Below, in pieces: positions 3,476 through 45,258 of a stretch of DNA of 64,000 bases (its first letter is position 1; the number at the start of each line of letters is the position of its first letter). The notes below the pieces were generated by a model, which was not told the DNA's origin, did no database searches, and was given only the letters and a program-made list of their open reading frames with translations. Origin of the DNA: Naegleria gruberi (lineage: Eukaryota). A program made the translations under genes and the position numbers. Location of the stretch: the NCBI GenBank assembly GCA_000004985.1, contig GG738852.1, one strand, 5' to 3'.

Positions 3476-6400
3476 ATGAATAAATTGCGTTCTGTTGTGT
3501 CAAAGAAGAAACAACGTTACCAAAAGGAAGGTTTTGACCTCGACTTGACGTACATTAGTGATCGTGTCATTAGGTAAGTTTCTACTCGAAAGACAATAGT
3601 TTCGAATAAAGAATAGTATGGGTTTCCCTTCAACAGGTGCAGAAAGTTTGTACAGAAATCCTTTGGAAGAAGTAAAATCCTTTTTCCAGTCCAAACACGA
3701 CGACCACTACAAGATTTATAATTTGTGTTCGGAGAAGAATTATGATCCTAGTGTATTTTCGAATCGTGTTGCTAGGTAAGTTTCGAATAGAATAATAATA
3801 GTAACACCTTTTATAGATTCCCATTTGATGACCACAATGCTCCACATTTTTCATTAATTTTGGATTTTTGTGAAGGTGAGTTTAAAGTTTCGAATTGTTT
3901 GATGGAATTGTATAGATGCTTGTCGTTACTTGATGGAAGATAAACAAAATACTCTTGCTGTTCACTGTAAAGGTAAGTCTAAATTGCTATGAATTCATTC
4001 CATTGACATGTGACTTTAGCCGGCAAAGGAAGAACTGTATGTTTTTCTAATAGTATTTGAAAATTAATGTTTTAACAACAAAAAATATCCATTAACAATT
4101 ATCATCAACACACAACCGATATTTCATCATCAATCATACCAATTATGTCATTGCACAAATTTCTCTCTCAAATAGGGTACTATGGTTTCATCTTTGATGA
4201 TTTATACTGGTTTCTGCTCAACTGCATCCGAAGCTATGGAATTATTTGGTAGAATCAGATGTAATGATTCTAAAGGTGTGACTATTCCTTCTCAGAAGAG
4301 GTAAGTTTTGATGCATTTTTCTTCATTTACTAAAGATTTTCAATGTTAATCATTCGATCATTGTGAAATCTCTGAAATAGATATGTTCAATATTTTGAGG
4401 AATGTGTTGTTCATAGAGGAATGAGATTTCCAACAAAAGATGCGAAAATTACACTCAAAGCTGTTCATATGAATTCAGTTCCACACTTTGATAGAGATGA
4501 AGGAAGTGATCCATACTTTGTCATTCATCAACCTTTCTATGATAAGGAAACAAGAGATAATTATCGTATGGAAAAGTTATTTGATTATTCGGTAAGTTGA
4601 TCATTTTACATAATTTGCTGAAATTCACACAATTTGTAGCAAAATGAAAAAGTTAAACATTTAAAGAAGGGAGAGGAAGTTTGGATTAAAAATTTGAATA
4701 TTGACCTTTCTGGTGACTTTAGAATGATTTTCTATGATATGGATAAAGTCAAGAAGGATGAAAAAATGTTCATGCTTTGGTTGAATACAAACTTTTTACA
4801 CTTGCACCAACCTTACAATTCTTCCAATTCAATTCCACATAGAAAATTTTTGGGTCCTAATGATATTGTTGTTAGAATTCCAAAAGTTGAATTGGATAAA
4901 GCTGTAAAAGACAAGAAGAATCAAGCATTTGATGCTGATTTTTATGTTGACTTGATTATTGAAGTGAAGGAACCAAGTCAATATTCTGAACCACACAAAT
5001 TTGTGTACAATACACCAGACAGTGGAAAGGAATTGTTTGGAGAAATTCAACAATACGCTAAAACTGAAGCTTCAAGCAAGGAAAAGGAAAAAGCCAGAAA
5101 ACAATACGAACAAGGTAGAGAATTCTTTGCATTGAAACAATATTCCAATGCTGTTACATCTTTCTCGAATGCTATTTTGATTGATAGTGGATTTGAGGAA
5201 GCTTACATGTCAAGAGGTTTAGCTAACATGAATTTGAAACGTTTCCCTGAAGCAATTTACGATTTCACAACTGTTTTGAATATTCTGGCTAAGGGAACTA
5301 CAAGTTTGGGTGAAGATATTCCAATTCAAGATAGTATTACAATTACTTTAAGAGCATATCACTCCAGAGGTAAATGTCATACTAAAATGAAGGAATATGA
5401 ATTTGCCATCAAGGATTATGATAGTGCCACTTCAATTTTAGAACATGCTCAACATATTGGAAACGATGGATGTTCTACCACTACTGTATCCAACAATAAT
5501 CACTCTACATCTCCTTTCACTGATTCACTCTTCCAAACATTCTTTAGAGTTTATCTCGATAGAGGTCTCATTAACGATGCTCTTCAAAAATACTCTGACT
5601 GTATTATTGATTATACTAACTTTATCAAATATATGGATCCACTCTCTGAATCTCTAGTTGTTAAATTGAGAGAAGGTAAAATAACTGCAAACAAGTATGA
5701 ACAATACTTGTTTGAATTGTTCCAAGCCTTTTACAATAAGGCAATTGCTATTGGAAAGGTCGATAATTATCCTAACAAGGAAACTCAAGTATTCCATGAC
5801 TTGAACAAGGCAGTTGATTATATTGAAAAGATGTCTGACCCAATTAACAGTCCAGATGCTCTAGTATTTGGTCAAGTCTACCTTGCCAGAGGTGATAGAC
5901 AAACAGATAAGGAAGCTGCCATTAACGATTTCCTTAAATGTCTCTTATATGATAAGACTAACAGGATAGCTACAAAGAGATTGGCTGTTTTACTCTATGA
6001 ACAAAAGCAGTACAAGAGAGCTGTTCTCTATTTTTCAAAACTCATCAAGGATGAACCACAAAATGTCAAAATGCTTACCAATAGAGCTATTTGTTATTTA
6101 AAATTGGAACTTTATGAAAATGCCATTGTTGATTTTAAGGCAGCTCAGAATTTATCACCTGATACTATGAATTTATATGTACAATGTGCCAGATGCTACA
6201 GAAGAAAACACGAACTCTCAGACCCAGCTCAAATACCTCAAAAAGAATTGGAAGATTGTGAAATTCAATATTCAACAGCTATTGATTATCTTCAAAAGAG
6301 AAAGAAGGCAGCTACTCCATCCACTCCAAGCACACCAACTCTCTCTTCATCCTCAACTATTAAGGACGATGATCTTAAAACTCTCTACTTTGAACGTGGT

Positions 6401-6724
6401 ATGACTAGATTCGCTCTGAAAAAATACGAAAGTGCTATTCTCGATTATAGTCATTGTCTTGAACTCGACCCAAATCATTCCCTAGCTCTCTACAATAGAG
6501 CTTACACTCGTCAAAAATTCTTGAAACAATACGACAAGGCCATCACTGACTATGAACAAGTTCTGACCTTCAATTCATCTGATCTAAAGGCACGTCTTGA
6601 AAAGGGATGTTGCCTCTACTATTTAAAGAAAGATGAAGAAGCAATTATGGAATGGCAATTAGTATTGAAAAAAGATCCAAACAATGAAGCTGCCAAAGTG
6701 TATCTTTCCCAATTAGCTAAATAA
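3476..6724 (+). CDS. PTEN-type lipid/protein phosphatase plus C2 domain, fused to a long C-terminal TPR array (8 exons)
   Basis: Exons 3476..3573, 3617..3775, 3817..3875, 3916..3972, 4020..4036, 4176..4300, 4381..4591 and 4640..6724, all joined in frame by GT-AG introns of 43, 41, 40, 47, 139, 80 and 48 nt. The spliced product reads [42 protein letters not shown]...YKIYNLCSE...FPFDDHNAPHF...LAVHCKAGKGRTGTMV...KGVTIPSQKRYVQYF. This is collinear with human PTEN, including the HCKAGKGRTG P-loop. The last exon holds C2-like sequence followed by many 34-aa TPR-like repeats (e.g. AYMSRGLANMNLKRFPEAIYDFTTVLNI). Confidence 0.85.
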
Positions 6725-9800: not shown

Positions 9801-12080
9801 GAATCTCCAGTCAAGCTCATTCTTCGACCAATAGAAGATAGTGAAGGCAATGAATATTCTATCATTAGAATGCTTTTCGAATTTGGAAATCAAGGTGAAC
9901 TTGTTAATAAGATTTTCAATAGATTGATTGAATTGAACGAAGCTTGTGATAAAATTGTTGTTGAGGCTAGATTAAAGAAAGAAAACACCAGTAATAAGGA
10001 AGAGAAGGAAGCCAAGAAGAAGAGAGCTTTAGCCAATCGTCAAAAATTGTTGGAAAAGATGAATGCCAGTCAGAAAATGTTTGCCCAGAGCTTGGAAGAA
10101 GAGGAAGACACTGTTGACGATTCCGACAAATTGAAATGTGCCCTCTGTCATGACCACAAGTCACCAGAAGGAAACGAGTCTCTTTCTCTCCTCTGCCAAA
10201 TTGTTAACAACCCATTCCCTCAAATCACTAGAAACAAGGAAAATGTATCCCTCTTTGGAAATATTAGAAACAAACCAATTGTTGATATTGGAGAATTAAC
10301 AGAAGCATTTGCTGATGTCAATAAGGAACACAATGTTCAAATTAATTTCTGCTCTCATGCTTGCCATGCCGATTGTTTTGATAGATACTATACAAATCTT
10401 GTTCAAGAAGAATCTAGACGAAGAAGATTTAAAGGTTTTGGTCAAATAGATTTGGAAAGTATGGAAATACTCTGTCCAATTTGTTCTAGAGTGGCAAATT
10501 GTCTCTGCCCAATTGTTTCAAATCATGCCAATTTGCTCCAATCATCCAATTCTGTATCAACAGAATTACCATCACTTGAAACAATCGCTTCATTCATGAA
10601 GGATATTAAGGTTAAGGACAAGGCAGAAGATGTGAAAACTTCCACTACTCTTTCAACTATTTGTGAGAAAATTATTAATAAGAAGAAAGAAGACTTGGGT
10701 GATACTCTCGATCCAATGCCAGTTGATATTGAACCTTTTGAGTTGATTGATTCGGCATACTTTTCCAATACGTTTAGTTCGGAGATCGCTGTAGAGGAAA
10801 TACTTCAAAGAAGTCAACCACATTTACAAGTATTGCCTGAAGCAGTCAGAAAATCCCTCAGCCACGTATTTGGTCTTCTCATTTCATTCCAACAACTTAA
10901 TGAAAAGAATAGAGGAAAGACTCTTCAAGAAATTAATGCAGTAGTTGGTTCAATGATGGGCTTGAAATCCTATGCAAATTTGAGCCTTTATGATGAAGGA
11001 TTTAGAGAAAGAAAGATGTATCTTCCATTCTTGAGTGGAGACATGTTTACACTATTTGTGAGGTTAACAACCTTGCTTTTCTCATCTGAAAGAAAGATGG
11101 ATTCAGCAATGTTCAGAGATTTGTTAATGGTATTCTATACATCACATATCATTCAGATAATTATGCAATGCAACTTGAGACTTCAACAATCATTTAGTAC
11201 AGGCATTCCATCTATTGATAAGGAAATCTCCACAATAGAGAATATTCCAATATTTGAAAGATTTGAACTCAGAACCCTTGAAACTGACATTATTTTATCT
11301 GAAGATGAAATTGCTAAAATGTCCTGCGGTTTCTTAAGAAGAGTTGCTCTGTATTATTCGTTACTTTTCCCAGAAGAAGAAATTCCAACCTCAAGCTCTG
11401 AACATGTAAATTTGACGAATTATCTCCACCTTCCAACAGTAGATAACCTTTTGGTAATGATTAGAGAATCTAACCCTTATTCTGAGTTGATAACTAAATG
11501 GATTGATCAAGTTAAATTGTCCATGCAAAGTCTTTCAAAAGCCCTCAATGAAGAAACACAAGATGAAGATGATGAAGATTTGTATGCTAGTCAAGCTGAT
11601 TCTTTGATACCTTGCTTTGCAACTCCAAAACCTTTCAGCTTTATTGAGCTACCAAGATTATACGAAGATCTCATTCTCAAGCATAACAATGAAAGATGCC
11701 CACTCTGTTCCAAGAAATTGGAAAATCCTGCCATTTGTTTAATCACTGGAGAATTAGTATGGCTGAAGCAATGCACATGTGAGAAGCACATTTGTGGTAA
11801 GCTTACAAGATATACCAGGGAGAAATATTCTGGATTTGGACTCTTCCTTGTTATTAAATCATCGAGAATTTTGCTTATGCACGAAAGTAGATCAGGAATT
11901 TTGCATTCCCCATACCTAGATAGTCATGGAGAAGAAGATAAGAACCTTAAAAGAGGTGTTCCTTTATTCTTCCACAAAGAAAGACTCGATGAAAACATTC
12001 AAAAGTTAGGAAGAATGAATTGGGATCATGATACCATCATTTTGGAAAAATGTTCTAATTTGCAAACTCATGTTTTGTAA
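6809..12080 (+). CDS. UBR1/UBR2-type E3 ubiquitin ligase (N-recognin), 2 exons
   Basis: ORFs 6809..8890 and 8808..12080 join in frame via intron 8883..8925 (gtaagt..ccag, 43 nt, phase 1). UBR-box zinc finger CGKTWTVGQIAFKCKTCQMDPTCAICEECFKKGNHEGHDYSMTRNSNGMCDCGDVEAWSVSGFCCDH. RING-like region CALCHD...CSHACHADCFDRY...CPICSR. Cys-rich C-terminal UBR-type tail (CPLCSKKLENPAICLITGE...). Confidence 0.9.
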
Positions 12081-12101
12081 ATCTAATTTATTTTCGATAA
12101 A

Positions 12102-13832
12102 TTAATTATATTTTGTTCCTTTGAACTCTTCTTCATTTTGAGTGCTACTTTGAATATTTCCATACTTTCTCTCATAAACTCTAAAGACTGCAACAATAGG
12201 AACAATGTAAATTGTTCTCATCAAGAAGAAGAGATAAACCAAAAGGTAACCAGCTGTAATTCCACCTCTTACACCAAGATCACTAATGTCAAGAATTTTG
12301 AGGGTAGCACTCCAAAGAATGAAAACAACTGGAGCCATAATAACAACAAGCAATACCTTAACCCAGAATAATTTTGGTCTAAAGTTGGCAACCTTTGCAA
12401 GTGGATGTTCTTCACCTGATTTGGAGATGAATGGCTTTTGTTCTTTCTTAGTCTTTTTCTTGGCATCTTGGCTTTCCAAATCGACAGCATCATCGTCACT
12501 TTCTTCATCACTAACCATTTCTACTGAATTAGTGGAAGCTTGTTGCTTATTACTCAAGTCAAGAGTTATTTCAGCAATAATAAACTTGTAGAAGAATAAA
12601 AGTACAACTGAAACAGTTGATGTCACCCAAGCATAACAAATAGTCCATCTGAGGAGAATGTCCCATTCATTTGATTGAATGGCATTGAAGAATAAAACTG
12701 AAATAAATGAAGTTAATGCCATCAAAATACAAGATATATATCCGATTCCTCTAATCTTTGAAGAAGTATTCATATTTGAGAAAAAAACTCTTCTCAAAAA
12801 GTTTCCACAAAAACCACAAGTGAAATCGTAAAGAGCAGACTTGTTGAAAAAGCTTTGTCTTCCAATAAAGTTGAAACATAGAGCAGCAACAATAATTGGC
12901 AAGATCAAGAGGAAGAATGGTGTAAAGTCAGGTGTGATTGATTGAACTGGCAATCTATTAAAGTAAGAAACCCATTCTTGACTCAAACCAAGGAATGGAT
13001 AAGAGTACCAATCCCAAGGTTTGACATACAAGTTATAGTTAATGATTCTCATACCTTGATTAACCATGTAATCCCAACTTGGCCTGTATGTATAATAAAG
13101 AGGTTCAAATCCATTCCAGTGAACTGGTAATCTAACAAGACCATCTGCCTTGGTATTACCCTCTTCAAGCATTGTATCATCAGCATATTCCGCAATTCTC
13201 CAATTATAATAAGTATTCAAGAAAGCTTGAGCGTTTCTATCGTAGGCCTTCTTGAGAACCTCTTCTTCTCTAGCAATCATATCATCAAAAGTAGCAATAC
13301 TTGGTTTAATAGCCATAAAGAAGGTATCCAAGTCATCAGGAATGGTCATTGAATTTGTTCCGCAAACCTTTCCTTTACACTTGAATAAACTATCAATATT
13401 ACGTTTAACTAGAACGTCTGTACTCAAGAAGATGACATTGTTAAAGCCATACTTTTCCAAATACCACAAAAAGATGTATGGGTAAATTTGTCCCTTTGAT
13501 GAAGGAATTTCATGAATAATAGTAATCTTGTCCTCCTTAAGAACTTTCTTACTTCTCTCGCTAACTCTATCTGTTACGATTGCAACAAATGGATGGGTTG
13601 ATTTAGTCTCTCGTACGCTTTTATGAATAACACGTACAGCAGCTAAATGTGAATCATCATCAAGTATTGTTACAAAGGCTTCTGATGATTTTTCTGTTGG
13701 TAAATTATCAATTGGATAAAGTAAACTAGATTGAGTATTTGCTCTCACAAATCCCGAATTTAAAACTACCACTACAAGAGCAAGACACAATAAAATTGTA
13801 TATAAAATCGATGAAGTTCTGGGTATTATCAT
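12102..13832 (-). CDS. GT8 (glycogenin-like) glycosyltransferase domain fused to a C-terminal multi-pass membrane region
   Basis: Single ORF with an N-terminal signal anchor. Collinear with glycogenin: EAFVTILDDDSHLAAV.., VIFLSTDVLVKRNIDSLF (versus FMDADTLVLANIDDLF), FFMAIKPSIATFDDMI, AQAFLNTYY. The C-terminal half has several hydrophobic helices (FFLLILPIIVAALCF, GYISCILMALTSFISVLFF, WVTSTVSVVLLFFYKFII, LLVVIMAPVVFILW, GYLLVYLFFLMRTIYIVPIV). Confidence 0.75.
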   Translation of the reverse strand: MIIPRTSSILYTILLCLALVVVVLNSGFVRANTQSSLLYPIDNLPTEKSSEAFVTILDDDSHLAAVRVIHKSVRETKSTHPFVAIVTDRVSERSKKVLKEDKITIIHEIPSSKGQIYPYIFLWYLEKYGFNNVIFLSTDVLVKRNIDSLFKCKGKVCGTNSMTIPDDLDTFFMAIKPSIATFDDMIAREEEVLKKAYDRNAQAFLNTYYNWRIAEYADDTMLEEGNTKADGLVRLPVHWNGFEPLYYTYRPSWDYMVNQGMRIINYNLYVKPWDWYSYPFLGLSQEWVSYFNRLPVQSITPDFTPFFLLILPIIVAALCFNFIGRQSFFNKSALYDFTCGFCGNFLRRVFFSNMNTSSKIRGIGYISCILMALTSFISVLFFNAIQSNEWDILLRWTICYAWVTSTVSVVLLFFYKFIIAEITLDLSNKQQASTNSVEMVSDEESDDDAVDLESQDAKKKTKKEQKPFISKSGEEHPLAKVANFRPKLFWVKVLLVVIMAPVVFILWSATLKILDISDLGVRGGITAGYLLVYLFFLMRTIYIVPIVAVFRVYERKYGNIQSSTQNEEEFKGTKYN

Positions 13833-14122
13833 TTTCCCACTATACTAATTAATAAAAAATTATTAATGGCCAAGTTGTTCGTATTGTTGTTGTTTTTAAA
13901 CGTTTCTCTCGTTTCCGTTGTTGTTATCTGTTAGCAATCGAACAAATTTTCCTTTACCAACTTGGCGCAATTTTTTTTTTAAAGTATTTTGGAACGTTGG
14001 CTTGCAAACGTTCATAATCCTAATCCAACTCAGCAAGTTGATGACGAATGGAAAAGTGCAACGTTCGAATTGGATATGGATTAATGAGCGAAGGAAATGT
14101 TTAAAAACTATGGGCTGTATGG

Positions 14123-15298
14123 TCAATCACGATTATGGTGTGTTTTATGGTGTTGATGATGGTCAAGTACTTTTTCATTCATGGATTGGAAATTCATTTG
14201 GATGGAATGAAGGAGAGCTAGTTGTGCTCTTGTTCTGATGAGATTGTGTTGTGGATAGGTAGTTTTGTAATAGGTATCACCGTTGATGTAATCTGTTAGA
14301 AATCTCAATGCCTGCTCAAAGGTAATATACTTGGCACTGAAAGCTAGATATTCAATTTCGATATCTGTGAGGAATTTGTAACCCTCAGAGAGATATCCAT
14401 TGGTAAAGCTTTCGAATATGTCCATTTTGAGATGAATGTTTTGAGTATTTGGATCATCTTCTGTAGATGTGTTACAATACGAACGAATGGCATCTCCAAA
14501 ATCATTCAATACTGTACTGCACATTACAGTGTCAAGGTCAATTAAGCAACATGCCTTATTGGTCTCAGTATCGAATAAAATATTACTTAATTTCGTATCG
14601 TTATGAGTAATTCTCAGTGGAATTTTGTTACTTTCTACCAATTCCCAAAAATCAATCATTTCCTTTCTATAATTTTCCACAATTCCAATTTCATCTTTCA
14701 CTTCCTCCAATCTGTTAACAATATTCCTTTCAATGGCTTGATCAAATTGTTCAAATCTGAATTTAATATTGTGAAATCCAGGTAACACATCCTTAATAAT
14801 GCATTCTCTATTTTCATAGGTGATATTTCCATGGCTCTCAGAAACCAAATCAGAAAGCATATTCTGGAATTTTCCAATCATTTTACCTCCTTCAAACGCC
14901 AACTCTTCCGAATCAGCCTTTTCATGAGTAGTGGTATTTTCTATAAACTTAAACATGGTCCAATATTGAGAGTTTTCCGAATCTTGATTCTCAATCAATT
15001 TGTAAAATAATTTTCCATCATTGATGGTAGGAACAATAGAAAGAGTCTCCCTATCCGGATTTCCTCCCAATTTTGCAATTTTCCCTCTCAAATGTTCAAT
15101 CACGAGGGAAATATTATTCATCATGAGTTGAATGTTTTTAAATATTTTGTGATTCTTTCGTTGGAGAATGTATTTATTGTTCGGAGAGGGAATGTTAAGT
15201 TCTACCAGATAGGTATCATTGATGAGTCCACTCGGAATTGGTTCGATATTTATATTTCCAAGATTTGGACCTAAAAATTGGCTTACGATTTCATTCAT
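14123..15298 (-). CDS. APH-fold phosphotransferase, N-acetylhexosamine 1-kinase (NahK)-like, bacterial-type
   Basis: Single intronless ORF with an A/T-run before the ATG. Motifs IPSGLINDTYLV, ILQRKNHKIF, ITHNDTKLSNILFD (catalytic HxD....N), CLIDLDTVM, FGDAIRSY and RFLTDYINGDTYYK match, as I recall it, the bacterial NahK/LnpB-type kinase family. Confidence 0.7.
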   Translation of the reverse strand: MNEIVSQFLGPNLGNINIEPIPSGLINDTYLVELNIPSPNNKYILQRKNHKIFKNIQLMMNNISLVIEHLRGKIAKLGGNPDRETLSIVPTINDGKLFYKLIENQDSENSQYWTMFKFIENTTTHEKADSEELAFEGGKMIGKFQNMLSDLVSESHGNITYENRECIIKDVLPGFHNIKFRFEQFDQAIERNIVNRLEEVKDEIGIVENYRKEMIDFWELVESNKIPLRITHNDTKLSNILFDTETNKACCLIDLDTVMCSTVLNDFGDAIRSYCNTSTEDDPNTQNIHLKMDIFESFTNGYLSEGYKFLTDIEIEYLAFSAKYITFEQALRFLTDYINGDTYYKTTYPQHNLIRTRAQLALLHSIQMNFQSMNEKVLDHHQHHKTHHNRD

Positions 15299-15340
15299 TT
15301 TTTTTTGTTGAAATACTTTACAATGACTATTATTTAATAA

Positions 15341-16516
15341 TTATTCTTGATCATCTTCTGCTTGATAATTTTCATCATTAGCATCTTCCTCTTCGTAATA
15401 TTCATCATCTTCATCAATATCTTCCTCATAATCCTCATCATCATCTTCCTCATCTTCTTCCTCATCATCGTCATCATCCATGTAAAGTGAAATTGGTCTT
15501 CTAATTCCAATGAGAACTGTTTTCATTTGAGTGACAAAGGCAACATTATTGGCCTCATCTCCCTCAATGCAGAATGCAAGTGTGAAATCATCCGTCTTGT
15601 CTGAGATAAATTGATTCGTTTCAAAGGTATTTCTTTGTAAAATCAAATTGATAGAGTGTTTCTTTTCCTGCTCTGAAACATATTCCTGTAATTTGCTGAC
15701 ATAGAGACAAATTTCAATTATCTTTTCTTTGAGTTCCTTTTTAATGTTTGCATGATTGGCTTCAATACTGTCCATGAAACTTAAATATGATCTCGATGTC
15801 AAGTACCAAATCATTTTTGGAGTTGAAGTTGTAACATCATGTTTCGAATAGGAAGCACTCATACCAAGATTTGGAATATTTTGCTTTGGAATAATTGAAA
15901 AACTCAATGTAAATGTTGAGCTTTGTCCCATTCCCAAATCTTTTGTAACTTGTTGACCTTTAAATGTTGAGAGAAATCTGTTTTGAAACCAATTCACATG
16001 TTTGACTTGTTCCAAAGGATAATACCTCGATGCCAATTCAAATGCCTTGCTCACTCTCATCATTTGAATGATTTCTCTCAATGTAAGAAATGGAAATATG
16101 TGATTATTAATAATTTTGAATGGAATTTGCTTTTTACAAATAGAATACTTTAACTTTTCAAGATCGGACCTGAAAGATTCATGATTTTGTGTTTTCTTTC
16201 TTTCCTTGATGAGTGATGATCTCATCTGACGAGCAAATTCTTCAATTTTTCCAATATTTAATTTTCTGTCTTCTGATGATGAGGTTTCGTCTGTTGGATT
16301 TTCGTTTTCTTGTTGAGGAGGATTGGCTGCCTCTTCATTATCGTCATCATTGGTTGATTCGTCATCTCGGGATTTAGTTTTCAACATGTCGTTGAATAGT
16401 TTCTCCTTCTCATGATATTCCTTTAGTCTTTGTTCAGTTTCTCCTAACAAATCACTATCGAATAAATTTTCAAAATTACCCAGAAGAGAAAGGTTCTTAA
16501 ATTGTTGTGGAAGCAT
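15341..16516 (-). CDS. Hypothetical protein with an F-box-like segment and an extremely acidic C-terminal tail
   Basis: Single ORF with a genuine ATG after an A-run. Internal motif IINNHIFPFLTLREIIQMMRVSKAF. The C-terminus DDDDDEEEDEEDDDEDYEEDIDEDDEYYEEED is low complexity. Confidence 0.55.
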   Translation of the reverse strand: MLPQQFKNLSLLGNFENLFDSDLLGETEQRLKEYHEKEKLFNDMLKTKSRDDESTNDDDNEEAANPPQQENENPTDETSSSEDRKLNIGKIEEFARQMRSSLIKERKKTQNHESFRSDLEKLKYSICKKQIPFKIINNHIFPFLTLREIIQMMRVSKAFELASRYYPLEQVKHVNWFQNRFLSTFKGQQVTKDLGMGQSSTFTLSFSIIPKQNIPNLGMSASYSKHDVTTSTPKMIWYLTSRSYLSFMDSIEANHANIKKELKEKIIEICLYVSKLQEYVSEQEKKHSINLILQRNTFETNQFISDKTDDFTLAFCIEGDEANNVAFVTQMKTVLIGIRRPISLYMDDDDDEEEDEEDDDEDYEEDIDEDDEYYEEEDANDENYQAEDDQE

Positions 16517-16677
16517 TTTTTTGTAATTGGTTAATTGGTTTTTGATGTGAAATATCCAGTTAGTTTATTATTGAAATAGAGCTTCATTTTGAGTTAATTG
16601 CTTTCACATCAAATGTTTAGTCTTCAAATGCCTCAATTTTGTTGATGTCTTAAATTTCTTAATATATCATCTTGTTA

Positions 16678-18483
16678 TTAGTAATCATTCCATAATCCAA
16701 TATCCAATTTTTTCTCATTAAGTTCAAATCTTGCACTGTTGTGTCCACAAAGACATTTGCAAATATCATTGAAACAGAATGATTGAATTCCATCAAACAT
16801 ATCTCTTGGAATGATTGGGGAATGATTGGCAATTCCTAGTAAATTTGGAATATCAAAATGCTTTGGAATATTGATATTTAGTGGAGAATCTCTTTCAAGG
16901 TATAAACTAATAATTTGAAGAGCTGTTTCTTTTGTAATTGGTAATTTTCCTGTTTTGAATAGCTCAATATCATACCAAGCTAACATTTGCTCTGGATGGT
17001 AACCTCTTCTTGCAATATCCAAAATTTCTGCATACGCATCTCCTTCTTTTAGTTTGATTGCAACCTCCATTGAAATTTCTTCGCTATTCTTTGAGTCATA
17101 TCTCACAGAATACAAGACAGGAAGGAATATTGTAACAAATTGTTCAATGGTACAATAGAATAACATGCAAGTACCAAAAGGAAAGAAATAGTCAACCAAT
17201 TGGACTATAATATCAATTTGACTAGTAATAATATAAATAAGACAAAAGATGAGTTGGACAACCACTACAGCTAGAGTTTCTTTCTTAATATACCAAATAT
17301 CCTTATCAGTCCTAATAGAAAGAATGACAAATATTGTCTCAATAATTATATAAATAACGGCCTCACATGTAACCAAAATAGAGGTATTCTTCTCCACAGA
17401 ACATCCTCTATCAAATAAAAAGGTTCCTCCATCTACAAAGAAAAGTTTTGTTTCCACAAGCTCATCCGAAACTCCAACTGAGACCCAAAGAGCTACATGT
17501 ATAAAAACAATCAAAATAAGTGCCGGTATTAAGAATTTTGAGCTCAAAAGAAATGAGTAAATTTTGATAAACCTCTTCTTGCGTTCAATGTCCCTGTTTG
17601 ATATTGCAGATGCATTTGTTGTTTTGTTTTCCGAATAAATACTTTGATCATGCATTTCATGTTCATTGCCTAATTCTTTCTGCAATGTAAACAGTTCAAT
17701 TTTTTTCTTACAGAGCTTAAATTTAAAGAAGAGTCTAAAGCATTTGTAAATGGTAGGAAGAAAAATACTTGCAGGAAATAAAAAGTAAATGCTCGAGTAC
17801 AAAATGCATGGAAATGCAGATCTCCCAACTATGAATCTAATACTAAGAATTGATTCAAATATCACATTTCCAGTTAGTGAAAATAATAGAGACAATGGAT
17901 GCCTCTCCTTAATGTGCCTACTCTTCCATTTCCACACTAGGCCAATAAAAGTCAAGAATGTTATCAGTAAATAGATCAAGTAAAATATTGCAGATAGAAT
18001 TGGTGTGAAAATAGTGTCAGGACACAGCCCATAAATCTCTGTAGGCCTCTCCTCTCTCGAATAGCCTCCATTAAACAGAAAAGGATCGCAACTCGTCGCT
18101 ACAGATGCATTATAATTTGGAGTTGTTGAGAGTATGGTATGAAATATTTGGTCCATGTATTCCTTAACTACATGGTCATGCAAGCCTAGATGTTGTGCTA
18201 TTGATTGCACAAACGTATTTTCATTTACAGACGATGATGAAGATGTCAATTCCAAATCATGTTCCGAACAAGTCACAACATTTATCAAAGTACTCATCAA
18301 GGCCACCATTATCAATGTATTTAGAAAAAGCCAGTTAGTTTGTTTCATCTTTTTAAAGCCAAAGTTTATGTTATATTGATGTTGCTGTTGATGTTGTTCT
18401 TCTTTTCGTTGGTGAGTTGATGAAATTGCTTTTGATGTCATTGTGCGTTCATTCTTTTTTTTATGGGATTCAAAAATGTTCAT
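16678..18483 (-). CDS. Seven-transmembrane protein with a C-terminal RGS domain (7TM-RGS)
   Basis: Single ORF. An N-terminal hydrophobic signal-like segment is followed by about seven predicted TM helices (ILSAIFYLIYLLITFLTFIGLVW ... FGTCMLFYCTIEQFVTIFLPVLY). The C-terminal ~130 aa fit the RGS pattern (MLAWYDIELFK....ALQIISLYLERDSPLNINIP....MFDGIQSFCFNDI). Confidence 0.7.
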   Translation of the reverse strand: MNIFESHKKKNERTMTSKAISSTHQRKEEQHQQQHQYNINFGFKKMKQTNWLFLNTLIMVALMSTLINVVTCSEHDLELTSSSSSVNENTFVQSIAQHLGLHDHVVKEYMDQIFHTILSTTPNYNASVATSCDPFLFNGGYSREERPTEIYGLCPDTIFTPILSAIFYLIYLLITFLTFIGLVWKWKSRHIKERHPLSLLFSLTGNVIFESILSIRFIVGRSAFPCILYSSIYFLFPASIFLPTIYKCFRLFFKFKLCKKKIELFTLQKELGNEHEMHDQSIYSENKTTNASAISNRDIERKKRFIKIYSFLLSSKFLIPALILIVFIHVALWVSVGVSDELVETKLFFVDGGTFLFDRGCSVEKNTSILVTCEAVIYIIIETIFVILSIRTDKDIWYIKKETLAVVVVQLIFCLIYIITSQIDIIVQLVDYFFPFGTCMLFYCTIEQFVTIFLPVLYSVRYDSKNSEEISMEVAIKLKEGDAYAEILDIARRGYHPEQMLAWYDIELFKTGKLPITKETALQIISLYLERDSPLNINIPKHFDIPNLLGIANHSPIIPRDMFDGIQSFCFNDICKCLCGHNSARFELNEKKLDIGLWNDY

Positions 18484-18727
18484 AACAATTTACTAATAAA
18501 TAAACTGAAGCACCGTATTGTGGATTTCTTAAATAGTCCTTCAGTGATGAAAATGGTAAAATGAACGATTTTCTTGTTACTTTGTGTTGGCATTTATAAC
18601 ACACTAGTTGAGAAAGTAAACAAGTGATTAAAAATCATTTCAACAATATTGCCAGTTCTCAGCCCGTAAAGAGTTACCTTAATGGAACAGTTTACAAGCA
18701 ACTCAGTAATTGTTTGCGTAAACAACT

Positions 18728-20491
18728 TTATTCTCTGATTTTCACGTGAGGATGGCTTACATGAACCTGTGTTTTATCTTCGTGTTGCTTCAACAGGCTC
18801 ACAATTTTTGTGTGCCCTTCTGTTAGTGCTATTTCCATTGGTGACTGAATTGTTAATGCTGACCAGAGCTGGCAGACAACTTACCAGCTTTTGGTTGTTT
18901 AAAAAAAGTGTTTCAGAGCCAATAATTTTAAATAGTACTTACTTCATCCTTATTTTGTTATAATGGCTTGTAAGGTGGAGAATACATACATTTTTAAAAA
19001 CCCACTACATAATAGAGCTTTAACATGCTTTGTGTTCCTCAACTTACATCCTTAAATAATCGTAAACATCATGTTGATGTGATTATCACATACGAAACTT
19101 ACAGTCTGCATGTTGTTAAACATCATCACACATGCCAGAAACTTACAAACTTTAGGACGTAAAAACAACATTTAACGGAAAATGGACTTACTTGCTTAAT
19201 AATATCACACAACATTATTTACATCAACATCTTAAATACATACTCCTCTTTTAACATCAACTCCTACAACATTCACTAATAATTGAGGAGTCTTCATCAA
19301 TGCATCCATGTTCAATGTTAAAAAAAGCTTACCTCCTATTACATCTTTCAAATGTAAATATTACAAGAAATACTTACATACTAATAATCAAGGTCATTAA
19401 AATTGATTCTTGAAAGCATGTAAAACATACAATCTATGTACATTTAGAAAATCAAATAAGCTGATCACTTACATCCTACATGGAGTGAGATCACTAATTC
19501 ATACTGCATACTTACATACTGGATGGCAAGTGAGTATTCAAATAACGAACATACGTACAGACTTGAATCATTCAAATAATAAGACTATATACATCGAAAG
19601 GTACTCACATACTATCGGATTATTTAAGTGGAGAAAATGGGAGTAACTTACACTCTGACAAATTGTAAAACAAGTTCAAAAGAAGCTCACTTACTCCTTT
19701 GTTGACATCAATCCTTTTTGATTTTAACAATATTTCTACAATGGCTAAATTTTCACTCTTACATGCAACATGAAGGGGACTCTTTTGATCTGTTAGAATG
19801 TCTTCAATCCATGCTACATACATACTAAACAAAAGGAAGAGACAATGGAACAATACGAATTGGAAATGAAACTTACGTAGTTCTATTAGATTGAAAGTCA
19901 ATTTTCCTTGTCAAAAAATTGAAATTGCTTACATTCTTATTACAATAATATTACAGAATAACAAGGATTGAATCTTACATTTTCCTATTTGGAATACTTC
20001 ATGTAATCTTGATTCTGAACTTACATACTAACATTATTATTTCTGATATATTGTTCAAATGCCTAAGACAACTTACTCCTCTATTTACATCAACTTCATC
20101 CCTTTCCACCAATAGTTTTACTATATTGACATGCCCGAACGTACATGCTGTATGTAAGGGAGACTTTTGAGAGATTAATTTCTGGTCTTTCCTCAAACTA
20201 CACTTACATTCTAATCACGCCAAATTCAATTCCTCAGATTATTGATAACTACGTACAGCCTTTTTAATAGAATCCAGTAAATTTTGATATCCACAAACTT
20301 ACTCCTTTATTTACATCAATTCCTTTTATTCCCAACAGAAATTGTACATAATCTGTATCACCTCTCTCACAAGCCTCAATCAATAATGTTTTCCCTTCAA
20401 CTTCATCATTGATAAAGCTTTCAAAATTCCGAATCTGACAAAATTGATGAAAGTTTCCGCTTCTAAGAATATTGAATGCCTTTTGAGCCAT
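18728..20491 (-). CDS. Ankyrin-repeat protein; predicted 27 exons and 26 introns, including chains of 3-nt micro-exons
   Basis: Clear ANK exons:
- 20303..20491: MAQKAF...GKTLLIEACERGDTDYVQFLLGIKGIDVNKG
- 20077..20163: SPLHTACTFGHVNIVKLLVERDEVDVNRG
- 19695..19781: SPLHVACKSENLAIVEILLKSKRIDVNKG
- 19244..19291: TPQLLVNVVGVDVKRG
- 18728..18844: SPMEIALTEGHTKIVSLLKQHEDKTQ...stop
Each is followed by GTAAGT or GTATGT directly after the ..DV(N/K)xG codon (phase 0). The intervening sequence parses entirely into GT-AG units of 39-55 nt separated by exons of 3, 6 or 15 nt. Exons (615 nt) plus introns (1149 nt) sum exactly to the 1764-nt span. The gene call is solid. Micro-exon usage is inferred from splice signals only. 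Confidence 0.65.
18845..19694 (-). other. Micro-exon linker 3 of the ANK gene: 17 introns (39-55 nt) and 16 small exons
   Basis: Small exons, in minus-strand order:
- AGT 19652..19654
- TAT 19609..19611
- TCT 19559..19561
- TAT 19516..19518
- GAT 19473..19475
- ATT 19431..19433
- TAT 19378..19380
- GAG 19333..19335
- 48-nt half-ANK exon 19244..19291
- CAA 19192..19194
- TTT 19147..19149
- ACT 19103..19105
- GAT 19048..19050
- 15-nt exon 18990..19004
- GATGAA 18943..18948
- CTG 18885..18887
Intron lengths are 40, 40, 47, 40, 40, 39, 50, 42, 41, 49, 42, 41, 52, 43, 41, 55 and 40 nt. Confidence 0.5.
19782..20076 (-). other. Micro-exon linker 2 of the ANK gene: 6 introns (49, 40, 43, 50, 52, 40 nt) and 5 micro-exons
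   Basis: Micro-exons TAT (20025..20027), GAAAAT (19979..19984), AAT (19933..19935), AACTAC (19877..19882) and TAT (19822..19824). Each lies directly between an AG acceptor and a GTAAGT, GTAAGA, GTAAGC or GTATGT donor. The last intron ends ..caaaag, and the next exon starts exactly at SPLH. Confidence 0.5.
20164..20302 (-). other. Micro-exon linker 1 of the ANK gene: 3 introns (43, 46, 44 nt) and 2 micro-exons
   Basis: Minus-strand parse:
- intron gtaagt..aaaaag (20260..20302)
- micro-exon GCT (20257..20259)
- intron gtacgt..gattag (20211..20256)
- micro-exon AAT (20208..20210)
- intron gtaagt..caaaag (20164..20207)
The next exon then starts exactly at SPLH. Confidence 0.5.
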
Positions 20492-20582
20492 TTTTTAAGA
20501 GATGATTCATCTCCTCTATTGAGGCTCATCATTATATTTTCAAATGTAATGTAATTCAGTAGTGACAGATGGAAATTACATT

Positions 20583-21185
20583 CTATTCAATTTCGCTCTT
20601 CAATTTTTCATAGATTGTCAAGGCTACTGAATCAGAGTCAATCTTATCCTTTCCCTTGCAGAGTGATTTGGCCATTTCCTTATCAACCTCCACGAGAAGA
20701 AGTTTATGTCTCGATTTACCTCCTCTATCTAAAGTTACTCTTGATTTTGAAACTCCCAAAACACCTGATACGTAATCACATAATTCCTTGTTGGCTTCTC
20801 CTTCTTTTGGTGGTGCAGCAATGTGTACTCCAATTTCTTCATCATTAATATTAGCTATTTGACTTGATGAGCTGTTAGGCTTAGCCAATATTGTCAATCG
20901 GATTGAATAGGGTAAATTTGCAGAGGCAATACTAATTGATTTTGGAATGGCAGTGCTGCTGCTACTTGATGAATTGCTACTACTGGCACTGCTGCTACTT
21001 GTTTCCGTCTTTTTCTTAGGAGCCATGATGGTAGTGAATGACGATGAATTAAATCTTTGATATGAACAGTGAGTGTGATATTCTGAGAGTGAACTAATCG
21101 GTGGTGAATAGATTAATGATGATGAGCCAATAATAATATTGTTATGTTTCTGATGAAGATGTCTTATCAAGCCTCTCTTCAACAT
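20583..21185 (-). CDS. DUF167/YggU (UPF0235) family protein with an S-rich N-terminal extension
   Basis: Single ORF with a genuine ATG. The C-terminal ~90 aa ([72 protein letters not shown]) fit the DUF167 pattern (AkP.ak...i......l.v.iaApp.eGeAN.eL..yl...Lgv.ks.v.l..G..SR.K). Confidence 0.65.
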
Positions 21186-43290: not shown

Positions 43291-45258
43291 ATGTCGAAAC
43301 ACAATTTGCTACTGTTATTACTATTAATACTGCTATTTATCCATGTCTATCACAGTGACTTGGTTACATGTCAAAGCAGTATCGATGTCAAGTATAAAAT
43401 AACAACTTTAGTGAGTGGAATTTCAGCTGATGGTAGAATTGACCAAGGATTAAATGGCGATATTTACTTTACTGAAAAAGTTGATAATTACATATCCAAG
43501 GCCAATATCAAAACAGGAATAGTTACACGACTCATTGGCACAGGTATTGGTGGATTCAATGGAGATGGATTATTAGCCAATTTGACACAAGTCAACTCGC
43601 CAAAAGGAGTTTCAATTTCTCAAATAAGTGGTGACATTTATTTTGCAGATTCGTCTAATAATTTGATCAGAGTAATGAATGCTGCAACGAATATTGTATC
43701 CACCATTGCTGGAACTGGTTCTTTTGGTTTCAGTGAAGGAAATGCCACATCCAGCAAGTTAAATAAGCCAACTGAACCAGTTTATTGGAATGGTCAATTG
43801 TTGTTTGCTGATTCGTTGAATTATAGAATTAGAAAGGTGGATCTTTCGAATGGAATGATTTCTACCTTGACAGGAACTGGAATTTCTGAATTTAATGGTG
43901 ATGGATTGGCATTGATTGTTTCAATTACTGAAATTCAGGCATTGACAGCAACTTTGAATGGAGATTTATATTTTGCAGATTCGGATAGTTTTAGAATTAG
44001 AAAATATATTCAATCGACAAAATCTGTAATTACATTGGTTGGCTCCACCAATAATTATAGAGATGGATTGGTCAACCAATCACTTTTGAGTTATCCAGAA
44101 GGTGTTTCAGTAGCTTCAAATGGAGATGTCATATTTAGTGATAATTCTAATCATGTTATTCGAAAGATTTCCATTTCTAAGGGTATGGTATCAACCATTG
44201 CAGGTACTGGAAGTGCAGGAGCTGCAATTGACAATGTGGATGCTACCAATTCTCCAATGCAGTTTCCTTCAGGTGTTTTGGTCAACTCACAAGGAATTAT
44301 TTATGTGAATGATAATGATAATAATCGAATTAGAGTATTGACACCGTATTGCAGTGATTCGAATTATGAATTGATTGATGGAGTTGTTTGTAGAATGAAA
44401 AATTGTTTTGGAATTGCAATTAATGAGTCAACTGTGTGTTCTGGACATGGAAAATGTAATTCGGATAATAATTGCACGTGTTCTTTTGGATATTCTGGTA
44501 ATGATTGCTCAATATTGGATGCGTGCTCACTTTTTACTAGTAATTATGCATGCTCATCAAGTTTTAACACGAGTGAGACTAAATTGCTTACAGTTTCGAA
44601 TATTACACAACTAGATTCGTCGATTATTCAATTTTCATCCACTAGTTCAATTTCAATTTCACTTCCTTCCTCAATTTCACAATATTTACAAGCCACAGAT
44701 ACAAACTTATCCAATGAAACCATTTCAGTACTGAGTTTACTTTCTGCTAACAATGCCAAAGATTCCAACTTGGTTTCTCCAATAGTTTCGTTAACTTTAT
44801 ACAAATCCAGCACAAAATCTGAAATCCAAATTCAAAATCTCAAAGATCCAATTTCAATCCAATTCCAAATCAACACAACTGTACCATCCATCTCATCATT
44901 GAATATCACATGCTCGTATTTCAATGAAATTCAAAAACTTTGGATTTCAGATTCGACCATCAAAACAATAATTTCCAAAATTGATACAATTAACACTCTC
45001 TCAGATGGAAATGTAACAATTTCTGTTTCATTGAATTGTGAAACGAGTCACTTGACTTCATTTGGAATAATCGATCAGAATTATAAGAAAGCAAATAAGG
45101 AATCTCAAACCAAAGATGATTCAGTCATGTTACAAGATAATACTACTGTATTAATTGCTGCAATTGTTGGAAGTGTTGGTGGATGTTGTGTTTTGGTAAC
45201 TATTCTCGTGATCATTATTTCAGTTATCATTCTATTAAGAAGAAGACATAAACATTAA
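43291..45258 (+). CDS. Type-I surface protein: signal peptide, six NHL repeats (beta-propeller), EGF-like module, S/T-rich stalk, TM
   Basis: Six NHL-like blades: GDIYFTEKVDNYISKAN, GDIYFADSSNNLIRVMN, GQLLFADSLNYRIRKVD, GDLYFADSDSFRIRKY, GDVIFSDNSNHVIRKIS and GIIYVNDNDNNRIRVLT. EGF-like CSGHGKCNSDNNCTCSFGYSGNDCS. TM LIAAIVGSVGGCCVLVTILVIIISVIILL followed by RRRHKH. Confidence 0.8.
   Translation: MSKHNLLLLLLLILLFIHVYHSDLVTCQSSIDVKYKITTLVSGISADGRIDQGLNGDIYFTEKVDNYISKANIKTGIVTRLIGTGIGGFNGDGLLANLTQVNSPKGVSISQISGDIYFADSSNNLIRVMNAATNIVSTIAGTGSFGFSEGNATSSKLNKPTEPVYWNGQLLFADSLNYRIRKVDLSNGMISTLTGTGISEFNGDGLALIVSITEIQALTATLNGDLYFADSDSFRIRKYIQSTKSVITLVGSTNNYRDGLVNQSLLSYPEGVSVASNGDVIFSDNSNHVIRKISISKGMVSTIAGTGSAGAAIDNVDATNSPMQFPSGVLVNSQGIIYVNDNDNNRIRVLTPYCSDSNYELIDGVVCRMKNCFGIAINESTVCSGHGKCNSDNNCTCSFGYSGNDCSILDACSLFTSNYACSSSFNTSETKLLTVSNITQLDSSIIQFSSTSSISISLPSSISQYLQATDTNLSNETISVLSLLSANNAKDSNLVSPIVSLTLYKSSTKSEIQIQNLKDPISIQFQINTTVPSISSLNITCSYFNEIQKLWISDSTIKTIISKIDTINTLSDGNVTISVSLNCETSHLTSFGIIDQNYKKANKESQTKDDSVMLQDNTTVLIAAIVGSVGGCCVLVTILVIIISVIILLRRRHKH

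Follow-up and report, generated by a model that had tools for sequence, protein, structure and literature searches.

Can a gene be divided into exons of a single codon each, and if so, are such exons kept in the mRNA, chosen among or discarded with the spacers in which they lie? This question is raised by a locus of Naegleria gruberi (Eukaryota; assembly GCA_000004985.1, contig GG738852.1), located in a stretch of 64,000 nucleotides (nt) that was analysed as a whole and is called the window here. On the minus strand, from an ATG at 20491-20489 to a TAA stop codon, a gene for an ankyrin-repeat (ANK) protein can be rebuilt from the sequence. It consists of five large exons and, between them, four runs of micro-exons (2, 5, 8 and 7, respectively). 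The original prediction for this locus, made from the letters alone, considered that the micro-exons could be combined freely and so diversify the loops between the ANK repeats, or else that they serve as a ratchet by which long spacers are removed. The reading that we favour, with moderate confidence, is that the runs are chains of genuine minimal introns that are removed singly, with all micro-exons included in one main mRNA, and that the arrays are a by-product of ANK-repeat DNA that was turned into introns (intronized). The structure itself is real and very unusual; its use for protein diversification would be the less likely reading.

Of the 22 micro-exons, 18 measure 3 nt, three measure 6 nt and one measures 15 nt, which makes 29 codons in total (Table 1). 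Each of them is directly preceded by AG and directly followed by a GTAAGT-type donor. The 26 introns measure 39-55 nt, start with GT(A/G)(A/T/C)G (GTAAGT in 16 of them) and end in AG. With full inclusion the coding sequence amounts to 615 nt (204 codons and the stop), to which the micro-exons contribute 87 nt (14%). An in-frame TAA is found 6 nt 5' of the ATG. When the assembled protein of 204 residues was compared with Pfam, it matched Ank_2 (E=1.7e-33), Ank_3 (2.6e-22) and Ank (8.4e-22), all of which pass the curated cut-offs.

All exon junctions of the gene are in phase 0, and the micro-exons are without exception multiples of three in length and free of stops, so that any subset of them could be skipped in frame and without creating new junction codons. 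In this respect the phase arithmetic of the original prediction was right at every boundary of the rebuilt gene, and exon 4 is itself a phase 0-0 cassette. The four linkers that it had spelled out, A-N, Y-EN-N-NY-Y, S-Y-S-Y-D-I-Y-E and Q-F-T-D-WVFKN-DE-L, were recovered exactly, and the range that it had given, 18845-20302, coincides with the limits of the arrays: intron 1 starts at one end of it (20302) and intron 26 stops at the other (18845). Its placement of the micro-exons in the inter-repeat loops also holds; the large exons end in ..DV(N/K)(K/R)G and the next ones start with SPL, TPQ or SPM.

Table 1. Exons, linker arrays, micro-exons and relics of ANK coding DNA in the ANK gene, in the order of transcription; positions are those of the window and slashes mark splice sites.
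Feature	Position	Strand	Remarks
Exon 1	20303..20491	-	189 nt; start codon, N-terminal cap, ANK repeat 1; codon-boundary end IDVNKG
Linker array 1	20164..20302	-	139 nt; introns 43, 46, 44 nt; 2 micro-exons
Micro-exon GCT (Ala)	20257..20259	-	array 1
Micro-exon AAT (Asn)	20208..20210	-	array 1
Exon with ANK repeat 2	20077..20163	-	87 nt, 29 codons, SPLH..VDVNRG
Linker array 2	19782..20076	-	295 nt; introns 49, 40, 43, 50, 52, 40 nt; 5 micro-exons
Micro-exon TAT (Tyr)	20025..20027	-	array 2
Micro-exon GAAAAT (Glu-Asn)	19979..19984	-	array 2
Micro-exon AAT (Asn)	19933..19935	-	array 2
Micro-exon AACTAC (Asn-Tyr)	19877..19882	-	array 2
Micro-exon TAT (Tyr)	19822..19824	-	array 2
Exon with ANK repeat 3	19695..19781	-	87 nt, SPLH..IDVNKG
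Linker array 3	19292..19694	-	403 nt; introns 40, 40, 47, 40, 40, 39, 50, 42, 41 nt; 8 micro-exons
Micro-exon AGT (Ser)	19652..19654	-	array 3
Micro-exon TAT (Tyr)	19609..19611	-	array 3
Micro-exon TCT (Ser)	19559..19561	-	array 3
Micro-exon TAT (Tyr)	19516..19518	-	array 3
Micro-exon GAT (Asp)	19473..19475	-	array 3; within putative relic of ANK helix-1 coding DNA
Putative relic CACTCCATGTAG/GAT/GTAAGTGA	19465..19487	-	linker 3; resembles (P)LHVACK coding DNA; nhmmer positions 5-27, E=0.11, weak
Micro-exon ATT (Ile)	19431..19433	-	array 3
Micro-exon TAT (Tyr)	19378..19380	-	array 3
Micro-exon GAG (Glu)	19333..19335	-	array 3
Exon 4	19244..19291	-	48 nt, 16 codons, TPQLL..VDVKRG (TPQLLVNVVGVDVKRG); half ANK repeat
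Linker array 4	18845..19243	-	399 nt; introns 49, 42, 41, 52, 43, 41, 55, 40 nt; 7 micro-exons
Putative relic AAGATGTTGATGTAAATAA	19215..19233	-	inside intron 19, linker 4; copy of ANK exon end (..VDVN..); nhmmer positions 65-83
Micro-exon CAA (Gln)	19192..19194	-	array 4
Micro-exon TTT (Phe)	19147..19149	-	array 4
Micro-exon ACT (Thr)	19103..19105	-	array 4
Micro-exon GAT (Asp)	19048..19050	-	array 4
Micro-exon TGGGTTTTTAAAAAT (Trp-Val-Phe-Lys-Asn)	18990..19004	-	array 4, 15 nt
Micro-exon GATGAA (Asp-Glu)	18943..18948	-	array 4
Micro-exon CTG (Leu)	18885..18887	-	array 4
Last exon	18728..18844	-	117 nt; C-terminal ANK repeat SPMEIALTEGHTKIVSLLKQ.. (SPMEIALTEGH..), TAA stop 18730-18728

The strict motif AGNNNGTAAGT has 14 matches on the two strands of the window, 11 of which lie within the ANK gene, and the expectation for the whole window is 1.15 (standard deviation 1.1; no more than 5 in any of 100 shuffles). 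When the donor pattern was relaxed, 20 of the 27 minus-strand matches fell within 18885-20259, and 18 of these 20 are the 3-nt exons. No comparable cluster of the motif was found elsewhere in the window, nor in the DNA of N. fowleri and N. lovaniensis, of which about 75 kb were compared. An antisense gene or a structured RNA in the ANK region was considered and rejected, as the plus strand there has no open reading frame (ORF) of note and the 64-kb window contains no tRNA gene and no Rfam family above threshold.

The array introns agree with the U2-type GT-AG introns of N. gruberi as seen in other genes of the window. The PTEN-TPR gene at 3476-6724 gives an uninterrupted ORF of 936 residues with the catalytic HCKAGKGRTG only once seven introns (43, 41, 40, 47, 139, 80 and 48 nt) have been taken out, UBR1 contains an intron of 43 nt, and further candidate introns that bridge ORFs measure 43-57 nt. 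These reference introns are mostly 40-57 nt long with a floor at 40 nt, and among the array introns seven have exactly 40 nt and only one is shorter, with 39 nt. A sharp floor of 40 nt that is common to both sets is expected if each array unit must splice on its own. GTAAGT donors are present in 16 of the 26 array introns as compared to 15 of the 19 reference introns, and the intron ends also match. The original prediction had spoken of a spliceosome tuned to introns of about 40 nt, which fits the introns of the neighbouring genes; its strict ratchet reading is weakened by the single introns of 80 and 139 nt verified in the same window. We note that the PTEN-like phosphatase-TPR gene has a 17-nt exon of its own (4020-4036, plus strand), which encodes a part of the catalytic loop (HCK-AGKGRT-G) between the 47- and the 139-nt intron, and which indicates that the splicing of very small exons in N. 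gruberi extends to a conserved gene.

The micro-exons also have a composition of their own. T is the last exon base at 17 of the 22 micro-exon donors and at 3 of the 19 donors of ordinary introns (P=1e-4). NAT codons make up 12 of the 29 micro-exon codons, where 13% would be expected (P=2e-4), and the encoded residues are rich in Tyr, Asn, Asp and Ser. A recurring 'CAT..AG' before the micro-exon acceptors (4 of 22, by eye) was dropped, as it did not rise above the reference introns (1 of 19).

The interiors of the array introns, on the other hand, show little likeness to one another. The mean local alignment score is 6.5 within the array and 7.0 between array and reference introns, the interiors align with each other barely better than shuffles, and the Tandem Repeats Finder program found no tandem repeat in the arrays. 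Nevertheless, all 52 splice sites are intact and all 22 micro-exon lengths are multiples of three; the four longer micro-exons taken alone already give P=0.012 for the latter. That the interiors have drifted to randomness while the splice sites and the exon lengths stayed intact argues for selection on splicing and on the reading frame. There is no stop among the 29 micro-exon codons (P about 0.09), and only 3 of the 26 array introns are a multiple of three in length (P=0.011), so that retention of 25 of the 26 would bring a stop or a frameshift. Moreover, an acceptor and its triplet are never separated by a donor, which means that any use of the internal sites would keep the triplet in the mRNA. 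We read the array units as genuine, selected mini-introns that are probably spliced individually and separate translated micro-exons; that they are spliced at all is what we infer from these signatures in the sequence.

The reading we favour would then work as follows. Each of the four inter-repeat positions would carry not one intron but a chain of 3, 6, 9 or 8 spliceosomal introns of minimum size. Each unit of 39-55 nt, with its own GTAAGT-type donor, branch region and AG acceptor, would be recognised by intron definition and removed alone. A gap of only 3 nt separates one unit from the next, so that spliceosomes probably cannot form on two neighbours simultaneously, and the chain would be cleared in successive rounds. 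Every removal would leave a micro-exon of 3-15 nt in the mRNA, and stepwise removal could not discard it because the only upstream donor is that of the preceding micro-exon. The default product would be a single 615-nt mRNA with 29 additional codons, rich in Tyr, Asn and Asp, in the ANK loops. Splicing by intron definition of short introns predicts that each unit is removed constitutively, in other words that there is one main isoform.

As part of this reading, the ANK locus is a real protein-coding gene of N. gruberi that is apparently unannotated. A word-index search with the full protein matched no N. gruberi protein and found only generic ANK proteins of at most 39% identity, and neither the full nor the skipped isoform was present in a collection of 15 billion proteins; the locus thus seems to be without a gene model. 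This is to be expected, since gene finders cannot place exons of 3 nt. The reference genome of N. gruberi has been public since 2010. An exhaustive HMMER search with the isoform that skips all micro-exons returned 58,836 ANK hits and no orthologue among them, and a metagenome scan with exon 1 gave only an unrelated, contiguous ANK gene that looks bacterial by eye (L006).

What would the micro-exon residues do in the protein? The original prediction had argued that, in linkers 2-4, the canonical loop of about seven residues is approached only when the micro-exons are included. Its count of two residues between DVN and SPLH after total skipping was confirmed, but inclusion leads to loops of 4, 9, 10 and 14 residues, and a structural need for the micro-exons is unsupported because loops of 2 residues recur as a class of their own in natural ANK proteins. 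Among the 150 best relatives in the database, which were retrieved with the skip-all query and hence lean to short loops, the spacing from D-V-N to (T/S)P(L/M) has two peaks, at 7 residues (390 of 631 repeats) and at 2 (65 of 631), intermediates being rare. A natural short-loop example is P0143, with IDVNLGGPLS and a period of 29 residues. The large exons alone have the same period of 29 residues (2-residue spacing) instead of the canonical 33 (7-residue spacing). When the four large exons other than exon 4 were modelled by AlphaFold2 without micro-exons, the predicted local distance difference test (pLDDT) score was 88-97 over residues 61-140, with paired helices in each repeat. The addition of exon 4, again without micro-exons, gave a mean pLDDT of 76.7, and the half repeat was poorly modelled. 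By sequence and model, the large exons alone appear to encode the natural short-loop class of ANK repeats (DVN-xx-(S/T)PL). Since they would already make a complete short-loop stack, the residues from the micro-exons are probably insertions that are tolerated on the loop face and not needed for the fold. In the short-loop proteins of the databases the loops are encoded contiguously, whereas here an intron chain stands at each loop position.

The origin of the arrays is the weakest step of our account, and here the sequence only suggests an answer, i.e. that they go back to ANK-repeat DNA that had decayed or been duplicated. When nhmmer was run with a DNA profile built from the 87-nt repeat exons, exon 4 aligned to positions 47-87 (E=0.0075). 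It is thus the second, C-terminal half of a repeat and lacks 39 nt in comparison to the 87-nt exons. Linkers 3 and 4 each contain a short stretch that resembles ANK coding DNA (Table 1). The one in linker 3 supplies an acceptor, a micro-exon and a donor; the one in linker 4 contains TTGATGTAAATAA, 13 nt that recur unchanged where exons 1 and 2 end (blastn E=0.001-0.003). Both hits together were seen in none of 300 shuffles that preserved the splice sites, and the better hit alone in 4.7% of them. Judged by eye, the micro-exon GAG with its upstream flank (GATGTAATAG/GAG/GTAAGC, 19345-19327, minus strand) also resembles an ANK exon end, GATGTAAATAGAGGA/GTAAGT, and the DVN codons GAT GTA AAT are one substitution away from GAT/GTAAGT.

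According to the reading we favour, the linker DNA would consist of decayed or locally duplicated ANK repeats that were made into introns piece by piece, which would be possible because ANK coding DNA is one to two substitutions from splice signals (GAT GTA AAT; AG CAT GTA CGT in exon 2). The intronized pieces would have shrunk to the 40-nt floor, in a genome whose introns sit at an optimum of 40-55 nt, and the in-frame triplets would be leftovers between the new splice sites. The NAT/GTAAGT context and the relics fit a descent of the units from ANK DNA; they also fit a selection for Tyr, Asn and Asp or a constraint peculiar to 3-nt exons. An attempt to express the linker lengths as counts of whole decayed repeats (43 + n x 130 nt) gave only a rough fit and is not relied on. 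As a separate observation, the helix-1 coding DNA of the ANK repeats holds splice-like cryptic sites, AG/CAT/GTACGT in exon 2 (20149-20139) and GCAT/GTAAGA in exon 3 (19757-19766), both on the minus strand. If used, they would cut the repeat exons.

A number of observations weigh against this account. The hits to the relics have E values of 0.1-0.2 and depend partly on letters that resemble splice sites. The product that is modelled best lacks the micro-exons and exon 4, which would also fit an mRNA that skips them. Acceptors ending in AAG are found in 11 of the 26 array introns and in 2 of the 19 other introns of the window (P=0.024); AAG acceptors are usually weaker, and this enrichment leaves room for alternative use. 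Three upstream ATGs (20532, 20529 and 20510, minus strand) lie at most 41 nt 5' of the ANK start, all of them out of frame. If they were part of the 5' untranslated region they would lower the translation of the ANK protein, and the transcription start may thus be very near the ATG. One of the three opens an ORF of 50 codons that overlaps the ANK ORF.

The relatives belong to the same side of the balance. A DUF167 gene of the same strand precedes the ANK gene at a distance of 94 nt. Synteny walks from UBR1 and from DUF167 found no ANK gene at these places in N. fowleri or N. lovaniensis, in which the next gene downstream of the DUF167 orthologue encodes an ABC transporter. A closer relative is represented by a metagenome contig of the European Nucleotide Archive (ERZ4903137 k141_3740013, L005), whose DUF167 coding sequence is 79% identical in DNA. 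Downstream of DUF167, at 520-640 of this contig, a 92-nt stretch is 86% identical to ANK exon 1 and carries a frameshift and stops, and nothing array-like follows it in the contig. Either this stretch is what a pseudogene left behind, or the assembly is in error here. The stretch is better conserved than the neighbouring coding gene. Judging from the contig, the ANK gene would predate the split from this lineage and would be dispensable, and it could be decaying in N. gruberi too.

How do other explanations fare with the same observations? The idea that the 22 cassettes and the 48-nt exon 4 are combined variably, giving many ANK proteins whose loops differ on the recognition face, is in our view improbable. 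We give no more credit to its widest form, in which the chains of one-codon cassettes are a generator of up to 2^22 recognition surfaces, chosen at random or by condition, as a protist analogue of hypervariable binding scaffolds. All cassettes are in phase 0-0 and stop-free, the skipping of one cassette would create an intron of 85-105 nt, which is within the range verified in the window (80 and 139 nt), the weaker AAG acceptors are enriched, and an ANK core is in keeping with the shortest form as well as with the longest. A composition rich in Tyr, Asn, Asp and Ser, as the micro-exons have it, is typical of binding loops. However, the array donors match the consensus about as often as ordinary ones, and every unit is a complete minimal intron, for which intron definition predicts constitutive removal. 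The gene is single, small and lost in relatives, unlike a diversity system under strong selection, and exon skipping is a minority mode of splicing outside animals (PMC6142364). Alternatively, the micro-exons may be mostly absent from the functional mRNA, the short-loop protein being the one that works; the internal sites would then be relics, decoys or aids in clearing the spacers of 139-403 nt, and mRNAs that contain micro-exons would be by-products. We regard this as unlikely, though it has some appeal: the large exons alone give the natural class with 2-residue loops and the most confident model, inclusion yields loops of atypical length, and decayed ANK DNA seems to be present within the linkers. 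Against it stands that any stepwise use of the internal sites necessarily retains each triplet, that skipping would have to ignore up to eight proximal consensus pairs of acceptor and donor, and that unused sites should have decayed as the intron interiors did. The micro-exon lengths, the scarcity of introns that are multiples of three and the lack of stops point to selection on a translated mRNA that contains the micro-exons, and the same genome removes single introns of 80 and 139 nt.

A dying or non-functional ANK gene, i.e. a structure without present function, is improbable to about the same degree as variable combination. The apparent lack of annotation, the absence from the syntenic site in the two other species, the damaged exon 1 in the closer relative, the halved repeat 4 and the out-of-frame ATGs upstream are all in agreement with it. 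On the other hand, 26 donors, 26 acceptors, the lengths of the 22 micro-exons and a frame of 204 codons are all intact while the interiors are randomised, whereas at a neutral locus several of them would be gone by now; the missing annotation, as said, is expected for exons of this size. Finally, chance, a simple tandem repeat or a mobile 'introner' family can hardly be given any weight. It is true that the units recur every 43-58 nt and that TAT, AAT and GAT recur among the micro-exons, but the strict motif exceeds its expectation by far, and a tandem-repeat or introner origin was rejected because the Tandem Repeats Finder output is blank and the interiors are as dissimilar as those of unrelated introns. 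A length of 40 nt is also too short for a transposon.

The arrays can be compared with several known systems. In the micro-exon genes (MEGs) of schistosomes and tapeworms, runs of symmetric micro-exons are multiples of three and any of them can be skipped in frame, and protein variants by alternative splicing have been proposed. MEG micro-exons measure 6-81 nt, make up most of the coding sequence, lie between large introns and encode secreted products. The likeness is in the symmetric micro-exons (22 of 22 in the ANK gene); the differences are that the latter are mostly of 3 nt and hold only 87 of the 615 coding nucleotides, with introns of about 40-55 nt. By inspection, the N-terminus of the ANK product (MAQKAFNILRSGNFHQFCQIRNF) has no hydrophobic signal core. 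In the recursive splicing of Drosophila and vertebrates, introns of tens of kb are removed via zero-length ratchet points (AG/GTAAGT) or with a recursive-splicing exon that is discarded. The likeness lies in the removal of a spacer in successive steps via internal pairs of acceptor and donor. In the ANK gene, in contrast, 3-15 nt stand between AG and GT in 22 of 22 cases, the residues would stay in the mRNA and the spacers are only 139, 295, 403 and 399 nt long.

In animals, single 3-nt micro-exons have been reported in the genes for cytohesin-1, RPS24 and MAP4K5, and neuronal micro-exons measure 3-27 nt (PMC6314551, PMC11162997, PMC8632122). These too are spliceosomal exons down to one codon that preserve the frame and typically add residues to surface loops, but they are isolated, with long flanking introns and dedicated regulators, whereas the ANK gene has 18 one-codon exons, in runs of up to eight micro-exons between introns of minimum length, in a protist. 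In the literature searched, no description was found of arrays of one-codon exons between minimal introns or of micro-exons in Naegleria. It is documented that introns can be gained when coding DNA is intronized or duplicated in tandem (PMC3629103, PMC4974935, PMC2891723, PMC3488318), the introns arising from exon sequence with near-splice signals or from local duplication, to which the putative relics of ANK DNA in the linkers would correspond. The reported cases produce one intron at a time, and the literature searched contained no case in which repeat DNA was converted serially into chains of minimal introns with one-codon exons left over.

One-codon exons are rare, and the current models of exon and intron recognition say little on how they are defined. 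The ANK gene is in this sense a natural test object for the minimal size of an exon, for the question whether spliceosomes work side by side on introns 3 nt apart or take turns, and for the order of removal. If the chains did come from decayed repeats, they would point to a route by which damaged coding sequence is rescued as introns, in Heterolobosea, i.e. far from the usual models. A combinatorial use of the cassettes, if true, would be a new kind of protein diversification. In more practical terms, gene finders miss genes of this type, as the ANK locus, apparently without a model in the reference genome, illustrates.

With respect to the surroundings of the gene, the ORF at 49923-52136 is identical to XP_002680687.1 (NAEGRDRAFT_46676), and the UBR1 protein of the window shares 57-58% identity with its counterparts in N. 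fowleri and N. lovaniensis. Two ORFs of 391 codons each (14123-15298 and 15341-16516) have the look of tandem paralogues but are unrelated. The gene order around 12080-20600 is rearranged as compared to N. fowleri and N. lovaniensis (L001-L004). In these two species a gene of 1541-1572 residues, teneurin/NHL-like in N. fowleri, lies between UBR1 and a gene of 576 residues. The corresponding place in the window is occupied by three unmatched ORFs and the ANK gene, and an NHL/EGF gene is found at 43291-45258.

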